64,000 bases of DNA from a virus. Where the stretch lies: positions 24,633 to 88,632 of the IMG/VR virus record IMGVR_UViG_3300049718_000055. The stretch is one strand, 5' to 3'. Positions 19,210-28,850 of the stretch are shown piece after piece (position 1 is the stretch's first letter; every line of letters starts with the position of its first letter). The notes below the pieces were generated by a model, which worked only from the letters and a program-made list of their open reading frames with translations, searched no databases and was not told the origin of the DNA. A program made the position numbers and the translations under genes.

Positions 19210-19995
19210 CTACGCATTGATGATGTAGGCCGCGGTTCCAACGGCACTATTCAAATAGCCGCTGGCCGTTGCGATAGCCTTGATTGTCTCGCTTCCATAT
19301 ACTCCGATAGCGCCCGTGTACAGAGTGGATGAAGTCGTCGGCGTGCTCCCATCGGTAGTGTAGTAAATCACCGCCCCCGGCGTCGTGCAACTAATCGCCA
19401 CCGACTGCACTGTTGTATAAGACCCCGCCGCCGGCAAGAACGTCGGCGTTGCTGCCGTTAATCCGATAGTGAACAATGCGGTCGCTACCGCGCTGGTGTT
19501 GAAACCCGTTGCCGTCGCTATCGCCTTAACTGTCTCAGTGGACGTAATGGTGATTGGGGCGCTGTACAAAGTTGAAGACGTGGTTGGTGTCGATCCGTCA
19601 GTGGTGTAATAAATGGACGCTCCCGGTGATGAGCAACTGATCGCCACCGCTTGTCCTGAAGCGTAATTTCCCGCTGACGGAGAAAACGATGGTGTGGCCG
19701 CAGGATTGAGTGCAGGTCCGCTGATTGCCGCCCCCGCCAGAGATGTAAGTGAATTGGTCAACGTCTGATTCGCTCCGTTATACGCCGTGTGCTGTGATGC
19801 AATCCAAGAGGTCACCTGAGCGATACTGCTGTTGAATTGGATGATGAACTGAGAGGCGTCTAGGCCGTAGTTGCGGGTAGGCCCGAGCCATGTACTTACC
19901 CCGTCCGTAGTCGAGGAATGCACCCGTACAGTGATGTGACCGCTTGCTTGATCTACTTGAACACTGTCAACAATGATTGATGTGGTATTTGCCAC
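19210..19995 (-). CDS. Virion protein with two chitobiase/Fn3-associated domains
   Basis: Two AATPxFxP..IYYTTDGSTPTTSS..KAIATA repeats. Confidence 0.85.
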   Translation of the reverse strand: MANTTSIIVDSVQVDQASGHITVRVHSSTTDGVSTWLGPTRNYGLDASQFIIQFNSSIAQVTSWIASQHTAYNGANQTLTNSLTSLAGAAISGPALNPAATPSFSPSAGNYASGQAVAISCSSPGASIYYTTDGSTPTTSSTLYSAPITITSTETVKAIATATGFNTSAVATALFTIGLTAATPTFLPAAGSYTTVQSVAISCTTPGAVIYYTTDGSTPTTSSTLYTGAIGVYGSETIKAIATASGYLNSAVGTAAYIINA

Positions 19996-20004
19996 TTCAC
20001 CCTC

Positions 20005-21189
20005 CTAGAAAAATACACCCGCGGTCGGAGAACCCACTATCGGAGATCCGCCGCCTCCACTCAATGACACCTGCCCACCAGAGTTCGTCAACACCACCAC
20101 AGCAACTATTTGGTTCCCATCAAAATTTACCTGAAGCCTATTTTGTGCAGTATCGCCAGAATACGGCCCCGAAAGAATGACAATTCGGCTTCCCTTTTTG
20201 ACGCTGTAGTACCACACGTTCCCTACTTCAACGCTTCCCCCAGACCCGCTAACGGTTCCCAGGGAGGCTTGATAGGTGAACGTATACGGCGGAGTTGCTG
20301 AACTGATCGGATATGAGCCATTGAACCCCGCAGGGGATACTCCGGCAATCGTCATCGAACTTTGAGCCGTGAGCCCCGTGGCTACATAGGTAACCACCGT
20401 CACAAGGTTTCCCACACTGGAGATTGAATGGATTCCATACGAGGTAGGAAGGGAAAGGGTATCCGTCCTTCCGTACAAATAGGTTTTACTTCCATCGGCA
20501 AAAGTGAAGGGGCTGGCCGGAATGGTTACCGTCACGCTTCCGGCATTTGTTATTGCAGCCACTAGGAAATAGGCGCTTCCAACCGAGCCGGACTGAGTGG
20601 GATAAACCTTGTCCCCAATCGCATAATTCAACCCTCCAAAAACACTTCCCCCTGTGACCACCCCGCCAGCCGCCGTAATCGCAGCCAAAGCCCCCGTGCC
20701 GCTTCCCGAAGTGGTCGTAGGCAGGTTGGAAGCATTGCTGTACCCAGAAGTTCCGCCAGCCCCCAGAGAAGACGAAGTGATTACCCCGCCCGAGATAGAG
20801 TTCGTTGTCAGCGGAATGATGTTGTTGGCGTTTGGGGGAGTTGACATAAGATCGTTCAACCAGGAGCTTTGCTGCTCCCTCTGTGAATTTGAATTTATCA
20901 TCCGATACGTGTCGAGAGAGTTTCCGCTGTTTGCCTGAAGCTGCGGCTTCAAAGCGGCAGCACTGTACGAAGTCTTCGCCGCCCCGCTCGTCAACGCATC
21001 ACTATCCGAGGTCGGCGCCGCAACATTCTTGATATTATTGCCACCGAGGTTGAGATGATTGCTCAACTCGACTTCCCCATTATGACCGCCAAGAGTGTTC
21101 ACGTTGTCAATCAGTTGGCTCATCAATTGGCTCTCTGGAAGAGACAGGGAGGAAAAGTTTATCTTTCCGAGTTTGGAAGACTTCGGCAT
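20005..21189 (-). CDS. Tail/structural protein
   Basis: Gly/Ser/Thr beta-rich; NIKNVAAPTSDSDA neck-like motif. Confidence 0.6.
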   Translation of the reverse strand: MPKSSKLGKINFSSLSLPESQLMSQLIDNVNTLGGHNGEVELSNHLNLGGNNIKNVAAPTSDSDALTSGAAKTSYSAAALKPQLQANSGNSLDTYRMINSNSQREQQSSWLNDLMSTPPNANNIIPLTTNSISGGVITSSSLGAGGTSGYSNASNLPTTTSGSGTGALAAITAAGGVVTGGSVFGGLNYAIGDKVYPTQSGSVGSAYFLVAAITNAGSVTVTIPASPFTFADGSKTYLYGRTDTLSLPTSYGIHSISSVGNLVTVVTYVATGLTAQSSMTIAGVSPAGFNGSYPISSATPPYTFTYQASLGTVSGSGGSVEVGNVWYYSVKKGSRIVILSGPYSGDTAQNRLQVNFDGNQIVAVVVLTNSGGQVSLSGGGGSPIVGSPTAGVFF

Positions 21190-23148: not shown

Positions 23149-23220
23149 CTAAAACACGACTCCCCAAATGACCCGCTTCCCGGTCATTCTGGTTATCACG
23201 TGTTTGGTCCTGATCTGCAT
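23149..23220 (-). CDS. Leader peptide 1 MQIRTKHVITRMTGKRVIWGVVF
   Basis: AGGTGG RBS; codons match all 12 downstream tRNAs. Confidence 0.85.
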   Translation of the reverse strand: MQIRTKHVITRMTGKRVIWGVVF

Positions 23221-24708: not shown

Positions 24709-24717
24709 ATTAAAAGT

Positions 24718-24885
24718 TATGCGTGACGGAATCAAACCGTCTCCACCCGCTCCAATGCGGGAGTGCTATCCGTCCAGAGTCGTGTCGATCTTGAGCCGCT
24801 ACGTATCGCCCCAAAACGCATTCCACTGTACTGCCTTCGCTACGCTCCGTCGAGCTTCACTTTGGCTTCATTACACCAACGCATA
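24718..24885 (-). ncRNA. tRNA-like element with ~97-nt insertion in the D-loop, 6-nt anticodon loop, no CCA
   Basis: TATGCGT/ACGCATA acceptor, GTGT/GCAC D-stem, CCCGC-ATTGGA-GCGGG, GACGG-TTTGATT-CCGTC. Confidence 0.7.
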
Positions 24886-24887
24886 CT

Positions 24888-26630: not shown

Positions 26631-26713
26631 TATGTTTTTCTGCTAACCTCTTCCACACTTCTCGGAGATCGGCATTCAAATGAAACCTGTGCGGCATGTC
26701 AACCTCCAAAATT

Positions 26714-27035: not shown

Positions 27036-27074
27036 AAAAAGCCCCTAACCGCTTATTCTCGGCTAGGGGCTTTT
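27036..27074 (-). terminator. Attenuator terminator, operon 2
   Basis: GCCCCTAGCCG-8nt-CGGTTAGGGGC-TTTTT, 2 nt before tRNA-Asn. Confidence 0.9.
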
Positions 27075-27117
27075 CCTCATTTGCTACGTTGTAGCAGTTG
27101 AATCTTTGCGCCCAAGC

Positions 27118-27180
27118 CTACACGGGATTACCGAACGCTTGTGGCGTTGTCGGCTGTCCGGTATGGGCTCGGTTCATCAT
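27118..27180 (-). CDS. Leader peptide 2 MMNRAHTGQPTTPQAFGNPV
   Basis: ATG 7 nt after the -10 box (leaderless); codons match all 12 downstream tRNAs. Confidence 0.87.
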   Translation of the reverse strand: MMNRAHTGQPTTPQAFGNPV

Positions 27181-27187
27181 GTTTCCT

Positions 27188-27216
27188 ACTTTACCGCCGT
27201 TCGCAATTTCTGTCAA
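27188..27216 (-). promoter_or_regulatory. Sigma70-like promoter P2
   Basis: TTGACA-17-TAAAGT. Confidence 0.85.
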
Positions 27217-27225
27217 ATCATTTTC

Positions 27226-27302
27226 TGGTAGGGTTGGTGGAACTCGAATCCACTAGGACATGATTGAAGGTCATGGTGCTCGTCCGCTTTGCATTCAACC
27301 CC
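27226..27302 (-). tRNA. tRNA-Glu(TTC), C33
   Basis: CATGA-CC TTC AA-TCATG. Confidence 0.87.
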
Positions 27303-27307
27303 ATAAC

Positions 27308-27384
27308 TGGCGCGGTAGACGGAAATCGAATCCGTGTACACGATCTTGAGAGAATCGCTGGAGAACCAGCACCCCTGCTACCGC
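27308..27384 (-). tRNA. tRNA-Glu(CTC)
   Basis: CGATT-CT CTC AA-GATCG. Confidence 0.87.
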
Positions 27385-27385
27385 A

Positions 27386-27460
27386 TGGCGGTCCCACGGG
27401 GAGTTGAACCCCGAACGCCTCTTAGACAGAGAGGAATCATTGCCGTTAGACCATGGGACC
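27386..27460 (-). tRNA. tRNA-Asp(GTC)
   Basis: CCTCT-CT GTC TA-AGAGG. Confidence 0.9.
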
Positions 27461-27464
27461 AAAA

Positions 27465-27583
27465 GTTCCGTTTTGTTTGCCTAGCGGCCCAGTCTCCCAT
27501 CGCATTAGCAGAATTCCGACTGAGGTTCATCCACTGCGGACTCGAGTCCGTTTGCTAGACTCTTGCCAGAACGGTACTGGCCT
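27465..27583 (-). ncRNA. Unassigned structured RNA between tRNA-Met and tRNA-Asp
   Basis: Nested helices CCGTTCTG/CAAAACGG, GTCTAGC/GCTAGGC, CGGAC-TCGA-GTCCG, CTCAGTC/GACTGGG. Confidence 0.55.
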
Positions 27584-27589
27584 TTGGAT

Positions 27590-27664
27590 TGGTTGCGTGG
27601 GGAGGACTCGAACCTCCGGTCTCCAGCTTATGAGGCTGGCGAGATGCCGCTTCTCTACCTCGCC
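27590..27664 (-). tRNA. tRNA-Met(CAT), 1-72 mismatch (initiator-like)
   Basis: CCAGC-CT CAT AA-GCTGG; G1xA72. Confidence 0.87.
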
Positions 27665-27669
27665 ATTTC

Positions 27670-27698
27670 AGTATGCCACTACTCTTTCATGTTGGCAA
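27670..27698 (-). promoter_or_regulatory. Internal sigma70-like promoter P4
   Basis: TTGCCA-17-CATACT, 5 nt upstream of tRNA-Met. Confidence 0.7.
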
Positions 27699-27701
27699 GT
27701 A

Positions 27702-27787
27702 TGGTGCATCGCCCCAGGCTCGAACTGGGCTGCTCCGAAGAGCGGCAGGTTTACAGTCTGCTGGCCGTCCACCCGACCATGCGATGC
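27702..27787 (-). tRNA. tRNA-Tyr(GTA)
   Basis: GCAG-ACT GTA AAC-CTGC; long V arm. Confidence 0.92.
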
Positions 27788-27885: not shown

Positions 27886-27973
27886 TGGCGGAGACGATCC
27901 GATTTGAACGGATGGAACCTTGCGGTTCGGAGGTTTAGCAAACCTCTGGATTAGACCGCTCTCCCACGTCTCC
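27886..27973 (-). tRNA. tRNA-Ser(GCT)
   Basis: GAGGT-TT GCT AA-ACCTC; long V arm. Confidence 0.92.
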
Positions 27974-27978
27974 AAACT

Positions 27979-28054
27979 TGGTGCCGATGGTCGGGTACGA
28001 GCCGACAAGCCTGAAGGTTTGAGCTTCAGAGGTATTCCTTCCCATCACATCGGC
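27979..28054 (-). tRNA. tRNA-Leu(CAA), short variable loop
   Basis: TGAAG-CT CAA AC-CTTCA. Confidence 0.85.
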
Positions 28055-28059
28055 AAAAC

Positions 28060-28135
28060 TGGTGCGGGTGGAGGGACTCGAACCCCCATGAGACTGATCC
28101 TAAGTCAGCCGCGTATTCCATTCCGCCACACCCGC
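28060..28135 (-). tRNA. tRNA-Leu(TAG), short variable loop
   Basis: GCTGA-CT TAG GA-TCAGT. Confidence 0.9.
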
Positions 28136-28146
28136 ACATCTCAAAC

Positions 28147-28219
28147 TGGAGTACCGGGCCGGACTTTAACCGGCTTCAACGGTTTTGCAGACCGTCCGCT
28201 CGCCCTTCGCTTCCGGTAC
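28147..28219 (-). tRNA. tRNA-Cys(GCA)
   Basis: ACGGT-CT GCA AA-ACCGT; U73. Confidence 0.88.
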
Positions 28220-28220
28220 A

Positions 28221-28298
28221 TGGTGCGGGTGAACGGTGTCGAACCGATCCTAAACTGGGCTTAAACCAGTTGCCTCTTCCAACGTGGGCTACACCCGC
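28221..28298 (-). tRNA. tRNA-Leu(TAA), short variable loop
   Basis: ACTGG-TT TAA GC-CCAGT. Confidence 0.88.
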
Positions 28299-28300
28299 AC

Positions 28301-28334: not shown

Positions 28335-28360
28335 CGTGAATTCCAAACTTTGGAATCAGT

Positions 28361-28426
28361 TCACATAAGCCCCCGGCCCGTCAATGGCAGGCAATACGAG
28401 GATAGCGAACTGAGTAAAATTCTCAT
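28361..28426 (-). CDS. Leader peptide 3 MRILLSSLSSYCLPLTGRGLM
   Basis: ATG 6 nt after the -10 box (leaderless); all six Leu codons, 4 Ser, Tyr, Cys. Confidence 0.87.
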   Translation of the reverse strand: MRILLSSLSSYCLPLTGRGLM

Positions 28427-28515: not shown

Positions 28516-28740
28516 GTGTACACCATGCCACTAAGTTTGTTTTGGATCATCGCCGTTGTAATCATTGCCGGAGTAGTTCTTTGGGCTCTAAACTCGTTCC
28601 CTGCCATTGACCCCACCATGAAGCAGATCGCCAGAGTGCTTATCATCGTGCTCGTGGTTATCATGGTTCTCTACTTCCTGTTTGGATTGCTTGCAGGTGG
28701 TGGTGCGGGATTCCATAGCTTCCCCGGTCCTTGCCGCTAA
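28516..28740 (+). CDS. Small two-TM membrane protein
   Basis: Two hydrophobic helices flanking PAIDPTMKQI. Confidence 0.75.
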   Translation: MYTMPLSLFWIIAVVIIAGVVLWALNSFPAIDPTMKQIARVLIIVLVVIMVLYFLFGLLAGGGAGFHSFPGPCR

Positions 28741-28782: not shown

Positions 28783-28850
28783 ATTCCCCATGATTTGATC
28801 TGCGTTGTTATGAATAAACTCTACATCCGGTCGTAGAAGTTGTCAACCGC

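Follow-up and report, generated by a model that had tools for sequence, protein, structure and literature searches.

A probable dedicated promoter for an initiator-like tRNA-Met gene inside a leader-gated phage tRNA array

Introduction

The trp, his, thr and ilv operons are controlled by leader-peptide transcription attenuators. The phage tRNA array analyzed here is organized along similar lines, with three short leader ORFs that are each followed by a strong intrinsic terminator and head successive blocks of tRNA genes. The codons of each leader match the tRNAs encoded downstream of it, with 9, 13 and 17 codons fitting the leaders' own blocks and 0-5 fitting foreign blocks under strict wobble rules. 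Unlike the known attenuators and the surrounding array, however, the element located in the spacer between the tRNA-Tyr and tRNA-Met genes has neither a leader ORF nor a terminator and resembles an ordinary constitutive promoter. Our literature search, whose coverage was incomplete, returned no published account of leader-gated tRNA operons.

The array lies in a stretch of 64,000 nucleotides (the window) that is part of the 88.6-kb IMG/VR virus record IMGVR_UViG_3300049718_000055. Metagenomes of peat, bog and freshwater, generated in many different studies, contain near-identical sequences. An earlier note on this DNA had proposed that the tRNAs for Asp and Glu, whose codons are missing from the leaders, are placed behind an unattenuated promoter of their own and serve as an internal control for a sensor model in which leader translation gates the tRNA blocks. 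Here, we examine this proposal in the light of related phage and bacterial sequences.

Results

Layout of the leader-gated array

The minus strand carries all of the tRNA genes, which extend from 28298 to 22097 in the ARAGORN annotation. Rfam and relaxed ARAGORN runs add Cys, Ser(TGA), Glu(TTC), Thr(TGT), His, Ala and Ile(GAT), as well as a second CAT tRNA and three odd Arg tRNAs. The leaders and the tRNA gene preceding the spacer of interest are positioned as follows:

28361..28426, minus strand: leader 1 ORF, MRILLSSLSSYCLPLTGRGLM, rich in Leu, Ser, Tyr and Cys and devoid of Asp and Glu codons, with its terminator following at 28335-28307
27702..27787, minus strand: tRNA-Tyr, the last gene of the Leu/Cys/Ser/Tyr group (ARAGORN)
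27036..27216, minus strand: the promoter region P_L2 (27216-27188), the leader 2 ORF (27180-27118), MMNRAHTGQPTTPQAFGNPV, without Asp or Glu codons, and a terminator hairpin (about 27076-27036)
23149..23220, minus strand: leader 3 ORF, MQIRTKHVITRMTGKRVIWGVVF, without Asp or Glu codons

Several features of the first block deserve mention in their own right. Bacterial tRNA-Leu usually carries a long variable arm, and Leu, Ser and Tyr constitute the long-arm class; these three, together with Cys, make up the block gated by leader 1. The three tRNA-Leu genes (27979-28298) measure 76-78 nt and lack a long variable arm, compared with 85 nt for E. coli leuW. Most tRNA-tRNA spacers of the array (27973-28300 and elsewhere) read CCA-(A)GTTTGRA, a word that may represent an RNase E-type cleavage motif. 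A hairpin located between the leader 1 stop codon and its terminator, ATTCCAAAGTTTGGAAT (28341-28357), is made of words from these spacers.

A probable promoter in the Tyr-Met spacer

The earlier note had described the spacer between tRNA-Tyr and tRNA-Met as unusually long and as containing a promoter of the form TTGCCA-17-CATACT. Both statements agree with our analysis. The spacer comprises 37 nt (27701-27665), as opposed to 1-14 nt for the other tRNA-tRNA spacers, a range that takes into account the tRNAs missed by default ARAGORN and beside which there are three longer gaps of 129, 83 and 179 nt. A promoter scan recovered the element at 27698-27670 on the minus (tRNA) strand, with 9 of 12 matches. 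Its parts are:

27693..27698, minus strand: -35 hexamer TTGCCA (TTGCCA or TTGTCA in five lineages)
27676..27692, minus strand: 17-nt promoter spacer, whose last three bases, TGG, provide the TG of an extended -10 element (27678-27677)
27670..27675, minus strand: -10 hexamer CATACT (TATACT in L002, CATAAT in L004 and L005; A2 and T6 invariant)
27665..27669, minus strand: GAAAT, the 5 nt between the -10 hexamer and tRNA nucleotide 1 (a distance fixed in five phage lineages)

The two hexamers are close to TTGACA and TATAAT, their distance falls within the 16-18 nt typical of sigma-70 promoters, and the -10 hexamer contains A2 and T6. The hallmarks of a leader-peptide attenuator are absent, with only 5 nt separating the -10 hexamer from the tRNA and no terminator on that strand. 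In the whole 88.6-kb genome, 44 sites reach at least 9/12, and among them only the one in the Tyr-Met spacer has a TG extension; the chance of finding any such site in this spacer on the tRNA strand is about 0.002. The -10 hexamer scores just 4/6, and across the window no enrichment of such sites relative to shuffled sequences was seen (7 vs 4.3). A similar layout is seen for P_L1, which reads TTGACA-17-TGgGAAGAT, followed by 6 nt to the ATG. In the light of the comparative evidence given below, the Tyr-Met spacer very probably contains a real sigma-70-type promoter with a TG-extended -10 element, and the geometry of RNA polymerase predicts a transcription start at 27664 (G1) or 27663 (G2).

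The tRNAs for Met, Asp, Glu and Glu had been placed behind this promoter without a leader and, indeed, we found no ORF or terminator up to tRNA-Glu(TTC). On a larger scale, no minus-strand terminator was detected between 28307 and about 27076, an interval that includes the region between tRNA-Tyr and the promoter, and the leader 2 terminator is the first one downstream of the internal promoter. A mini-ORF in the spacer (ATG-AAA-GAG-TAG) occurs in the window only among the relatives compared and was thus dismissed as a chance occurrence.

Two observations concern promoter-like elements elsewhere in the phage genome. The P_L1 region (28461-28427) and a promoter at genome position about 3231 (minus strand, outside the window) have TTGACA-ATAAT[G/C]ATT in common in their -35 and spacer segments, which points to a family of phage promoters sharing conserved spacer sequence. 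A further strong promoter-like site, TTGACA-17-TAGAGT (28818-28846, minus strand), is located just after the tail gene, runs into a terminator (28782-28759) and lies antisense to a small plus-strand ORF for a membrane protein (28516-28740); L003 lacks the segment that holds this site.

Conservation of the predicted promoter in related phages

Relatives of the phage were found via the adjacent tail protein. A search of the INPHARED phages gave scattered tRNA-level matches only and no relative. A metagenome scan with a 20-mer from P_L2 yielded one real match, L010, which is identical to L002, along with two chance matches, and a pattern scan of IMG/VR returned only the known loci and four unrelated ones, with nothing new added by further scans of this kind.

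An alignment of the window with L003, L002, L004 and L005 shows that TAC-TTG[C/T]CA, 17 nt, [C/T]ATA[C/A]T, GA[A/T][A/T]T and the tRNA-Met gene are common to all. Between the window and L002, the Tyr-Met spacer is 89% identical, as compared to 54-73% for the flanking tRNA genes; the P_L2 region, in which a promoter had been predicted independently, is likewise conserved between these two sequences. The window, L003 and L002, in which the -10 hexamer ends in ACT, have the TG extension, whereas L004 and L005 have CATAAT without TG. In the latter two, 12 of the 17 spacer bases are unrelated and there is no similarity upstream of TAC. A diverged metagenomic contig differs at 24 positions in 130 nt, with five differences in the 17-nt spacer and none of the listed changes in the -35 hexamer, the TG, the -10 hexamer or GAAAT (P = 0.02). 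In the five lineages and the diverged contig, the hexamers and their spacing are thus conserved while the intervening bases drift. The most distant relatives have weaker elements, with TTGACC-17-AACCTT in L058 and TTGCAC-17-TAATAT-7 nt in L057, both of which fall under the scan threshold; in L056, L057 and L058, the promoter-like elements are spelled differently and end 5-8 nt before the tRNA.

The gene neighborhoods of these relatives are informative as well. L004 and L005/L006 have no tRNA array, and their sole tRNA is the tRNA-Met with its promoter, which in L005 comes after a protein gene. Since this lone gene in L004 and L005 has no tRNA operon upstream of it, a promoter is needed there, and the conserved element can hardly be anything but the promoter of the tRNA-Met gene, as far as its sequence and position can tell.

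Could the spacer instead be a conserved 5' flank, such as a processing or protein-binding element, with Met, Asp and Glu being transcribed from P_L1 through attenuator 1 only? Conservation by itself is no proof of initiation, and high conservation is also seen in other non-tRNA islands, namely the P_L2 region and, in the gap between Gly and Thr, the first 66 nt. Moreover, a contig from an RNA library spans Tyr, the spacer and Met, as expected for read-through, which would not require a promoter. However, the conserved positions are exactly those of the -35 hexamer, the -10 hexamer and their spacing rather than the bases in between, L004 and L005 have no tRNA operon from which read-through could originate, and chromosomal initiator tRNA genes are preceded by consensus hexamers in the same geometry (see Discussion). 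We therefore consider a flank devoid of promoter activity very unlikely.

A different role was conceivable for the RNA copy of the spacer, which can be folded into a hairpin (UGCCA...UGGCA with an inner CAC/GUG stem) that would part the two tRNAs in their precursor. This hairpin reaches -11.2 kcal/mol (z = -3.3) in L003, where the inner stem gains strength from two changes; three more changes, seen in the diverged contig, are located in the loop. The fold is not significant, however, in the window (z = -1.15) or in L002 (z = +0.23), and its 3' arm is absent from L004 and L005. Being contradicted by L002, L004 and L005, the hairpin reading was rejected and appears exceedingly improbable. The conserved sequence is thus best read as a promoter, which is probably ancestral and was retained as the array grew around tRNA-Met.

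The Gly(GCC)-Thr(CGT) gap mentioned above (26631-26713 of the window, minus strand; 16018-16102 in L002) forms a conserved island in itself. Its first ~66 nt show 2 differences between the window and L002, with the flanking tRNAs being about 60% identical. The gap holds GGAGG-N6-ATG and a small ORF, MPHR[F/Y]H[L/F]NADLREV..., with one Asp and one Glu codon, and also a TTGACA motif.

The promoter-linked tRNA-Met is initiator-like

The gene immediately downstream of the promoter has the following coordinates:

27590..27664, minus strand: initiator-like tRNA-Met (CAU), identified by ARAGORN and scoring 55 bits in Rfam, with non-standard pairs 1-72 and 5-68

Apart from its CAU anticodon, this tRNA is characterized by G1xA72, which does not form a Watson-Crick pair in the Rfam alignment, by A73 and by an A5xA68 mismatch. 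Positions 1 and 72 are occupied by C1xA72 in L002, a weak U1:A72 pair in L004 and L005, and A1xA72 in L056 and L057. All five promoter-linked tRNAs share A72 and A73, with position 1 either mismatched or weakly paired with A72. The D stem (GAGA/TCTC) contains A11:U24, where the E. coli elongator has C11:G24. In overall sequence, the window tRNA-Met is nearer to the E. coli initiator than to elongator Met or Ile2. The same is true of its four homologues behind the promoter, and identities for the five are 70-82% to the initiator and 58-65% to elongator Met. In BLAST comparisons with E. coli, the tRNA-Met of the window gave no match; that of L002 matches the metZWV cluster.

The three consecutive G:C pairs of the anticodon stem (29-31/39-41) are absent from the window tRNA, which has A29:U41, G30:C40 and C31:G39; two of the three are present in L002, L004 and L058. 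The label "initiator-like" given to this tRNA in the earlier note is thus borne out by the 1-72 position, A11:U24, A73 and the similarity to the E. coli initiator, but not by the anticodon stem, and on these sequence features we regard it as initiator-like rather than as a proven initiator. The accompanying argument that an initiator tRNA is not sensed by elongation stalling holds, and the tRNA-Met has its own conserved promoter. A second CAT tRNA, located in the last block and matched by an internal ATG in leader 3, is likely the elongator Met.

Genes downstream of tRNA-Met

Between tRNA-Met and leader 2, the array contains four further units:

27461..27589, minus strand: 129-nt lineage-specific insert between Met and Asp
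27386..27460, minus strand: tRNA-Asp (GUC), identified by ARAGORN and Rfam
27308..27384, minus strand: tRNA-Glu (CUC), identified by default ARAGORN, no Rfam tRNA match
27226..27302, minus strand: non-canonical tRNA-Glu (UUC), identified by ARAGORN only at -ps85, no Rfam tRNA match

The 129-nt stretch had been taken for a structured RNA, a view that we cannot support, given that its fold does not stand out from shuffled sequences (z = -1.14) and that it has no Rfam match. It is absent from L003 and L002, in which Met and Asp are adjacent, and no similarity to it was found elsewhere in the genome or in the relatives. Contigs from other runs, including one RNA library, show the insert joined to Met and Asp. 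In the RNA library, one contig bridges Tyr, the spacer, Met and the insert, and another covers Met, the insert and Asp; such contigs do not prove single transcripts, may reflect DNA carry-over and do not reveal starts, so that they hint only weakly at read-through from the upstream operon, with which they are compatible. The leaders and the Glu genes are not covered by the RNA-library contigs, a gap to which no meaning can be attached. The tRNA-Glu (UUC) unit is matched exactly by a metagenomic contig, in which it occurs in a different context.

Another of the long gaps, the 179 nt between tRNA-Phe and tRNA-Pro (24709-24887, minus strand), looks tRNA-like with a long insertion, having a potential acceptor stem (TATGCGT/ACGCATA) and T arm (GACGG-TTTGATT-CCGTC). 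It is located near the RtcB gene (24503-23274) and has no counterpart in L002.

Asp and Glu codons in the leaders

As stated in the earlier note, the three leaders of the window lack Asp and Glu codons, with zero GAN triplets in 61 sense codons. Measured against the share of Asp and Glu in the long ORFs of the phage (11.4%), this absence has a probability of P = 6e-4. Its significance is weakened, however, because the match to their own tRNA block dictates most leader residues; among the 12 that lack such a match, the absence of GAN is not significant (P = 0.23). More informative is a narrower observation. Of the 11 tRNAs between leaders 1 and 2, the seven preceding the Tyr-Met spacer are all represented by codons in leader 1, whereas Asp, Glu and Glu, which follow it, have none (window and L003).

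This pattern is what would be expected if the array were split on purpose, with Asp and Glu supplied constitutively as an unsensed internal control. It is also in line with such a design that the uninterrupted run of 10-11 Leu/Ser/Cys/Tyr codons is free of Asp and Glu codons in both the window and L002. The relatives, however, show a different picture:

Window: Asp/Glu tRNAs behind Met; no GAN codon in leader 1, leader 2 or leader 3
L003: behind Met (contig ends after Asp); none in leader 1, with leaders 2 and 3 outside the contig
L002: behind Met and the same promoter, in the order Met-Asp-Glu-Glu; GAC, GAC and GAG in leader 1, none in leaders 2 and 3
L057: behind Met, in the same order; GAT (inside the Leu/Ser/Cys/Tyr run) and GAG in leader 1, none in leaders 2 and 3
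L058: Asp/Glu tRNAs in the last block; GAA and GAT in leader 3, none in leaders 1 and 2

In L002 and L057, Asp and Glu are thus encoded behind the same tRNA-Met and yet represented in leader 1. In L002, one GAC pairs with the leader tail and the GAG is part of the antiterminator strand, and these codons may therefore serve a structural role too. The spacer of L058 precedes a tRNA-Met gene, which has a hairpin and protein genes downstream of it. The Asp and Glu tRNAs of this phage are grouped with those for Arg, Lys and Val in the last block, whose leader gained GAA and GAT, so that L058 amounts to a natural transplantation experiment for the codon-matching model (L058 positions 20165-20564 and 19609-19689). 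Across the four lineages, GAN codons occur in 3 of the 4 leaders heading an Asp/Glu block and in none of the 8 others (Fisher P = 0.018). In addition, the promoter is present in phages without any Asp/Glu tRNAs, and no terminator insulates the Met-Asp-Glu-Glu unit.

A purposeful split of the array is therefore unlikely. From the earlier interpretation, the promoter and the initiator tRNA stand, but the leaders of L002, L057 and L058 argue against Asp and Glu being deliberately unsensed as a rule. Rather, the leader sequences suggest that Asp and Glu normally have codons in the leader heading their own block, even with the tRNA-Met promoter in between, and that the lineage of the window and L003 is an exception. 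An apparent exception to the sensor model has thus turned into a test of it: the internal control would be a lineage-specific state of one phage, and the tracking of the Asp/Glu tRNA block by GAN codons supports codon-matched gating as a selected trait.

Discussion

Our results suggest that the Tyr-Met spacer is probably a dedicated, ancestral promoter of the tRNA-Met gene, with the Asp and Glu tRNAs as co-transcribed passengers and with read-through predicted to contribute as well. The promoter activity, start position and two-input expression that we infer from the elements, their conservation and the gene order would operate as follows. Because the -10 hexamer ends 5 nt before the tRNA, RNA polymerase would start at nucleotide 1 or 2 of tRNA-Met, and neither a leader peptide nor an attenuator nor a 5' leader could be accommodated. 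As there is no terminator until the leader 2 attenuator, the 129-nt insert, tRNA-Asp and both tRNA-Glu would be co-transcribed as passengers of the tRNA-Met promoter. Since none precedes the promoter either, any read-through of attenuator 1 would lead to transcription of the Met, Asp and Glu genes as well. The outcome would be a constitutive floor with an inducible top-up rather than an isolated unit.

The same layout recurs in bacterial chromosomes. A GTDB scan for the exact phage module gave zero matches. A looser pattern, which prescribed no more than TTGNCA, 17 nt, NATANT and, after 5 nt, the 5' portion of an initiator tRNA, was found in 32 species genomes, as against about 0.1 expected by chance, and the free hexamer positions turned out to be the consensus letters. 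This layout is seen in Acidobacteriaceae, Patescibacteria, Elusimicrobiota, Chitinophagaceae, Ignavibacteria and one member of the Bacillota. Eight of the 32 matches come from typical peat bacteria, namely Terriglobus, Granulicella or Terriglobia. Among 151 sampled genomes of Acidobacteriaceae, 19 hold the initiator 5' part, and 16 of these 19 initiator tRNA genes have TANNNT ending exactly 5 nt before nucleotide 1 (P about 1e-26). Acidobacteriaceae may be taken as a lead in the search for the host, a question that tRNA similarity did not settle.

A start at tRNA nucleotide 1 or 2 is unusual for bacteria, and a literature search of incomplete coverage returned no account of leaderless bacterial initiator tRNAs. 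The phage module would appear to copy a cellular design with a start at this position. It is tempting to speculate, although the balance tips somewhat against it, that initiator tRNAs without a 5' leader are made in this phage group, in Acidobacteriaceae, in many Patescibacteria, in Elusimicrobiota and in some Bacteroidota, with a triphosphate 5' end that is set by RNA polymerase instead of RNase P, and that the phage copied the design of its host. The RNA may then not even include "nucleotide 1", which is unpaired and varies between G, C, T and A. If true, the initiator tRNA supply of the phage would be free of both attenuation and processing. The 5-nt gap between the -10 hexamer and the initiator gene, recurring in several phyla, provides a directly testable case in which a tRNA 5' end is perhaps made by initiation.

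Compared to known systems, the phage element is closest to the initiator genes of Acidobacteriaceae, Patescibacteria and Elusimicrobiota, with which it shares TTGNCA, 17 nt, a -10 hexamer and 5 nt, as well as an invariant G2 next to a variable N1. Unlike the phage gene, these cellular genes have full initiator features, including the GGG/CCC anticodon stem, and are associated with neither an array nor passengers. Leaderless tRNA transcripts are made by Nanoarchaeum equitans (PMC10100707), where, as proposed for the phage, the 5' end is set by initiation and not by RNase P. However, in this organism the arrangement involves archaeal promoters, is genome-wide and goes along with the lack of RNase P (PMC10100707), whereas in the phage it is predicted for a single tRNA. 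Finally, the metZWV and metY loci of E. coli likewise have an unattenuated sigma-70 promoter dedicated to the initiator tRNA. In metZ, the -10 hexamer (TATAGT) is located 13 nt upstream of C1, which leaves a short 5' leader for RNase P, whereas in the phage the distance is 5 nt and the tRNA would be made without a leader.
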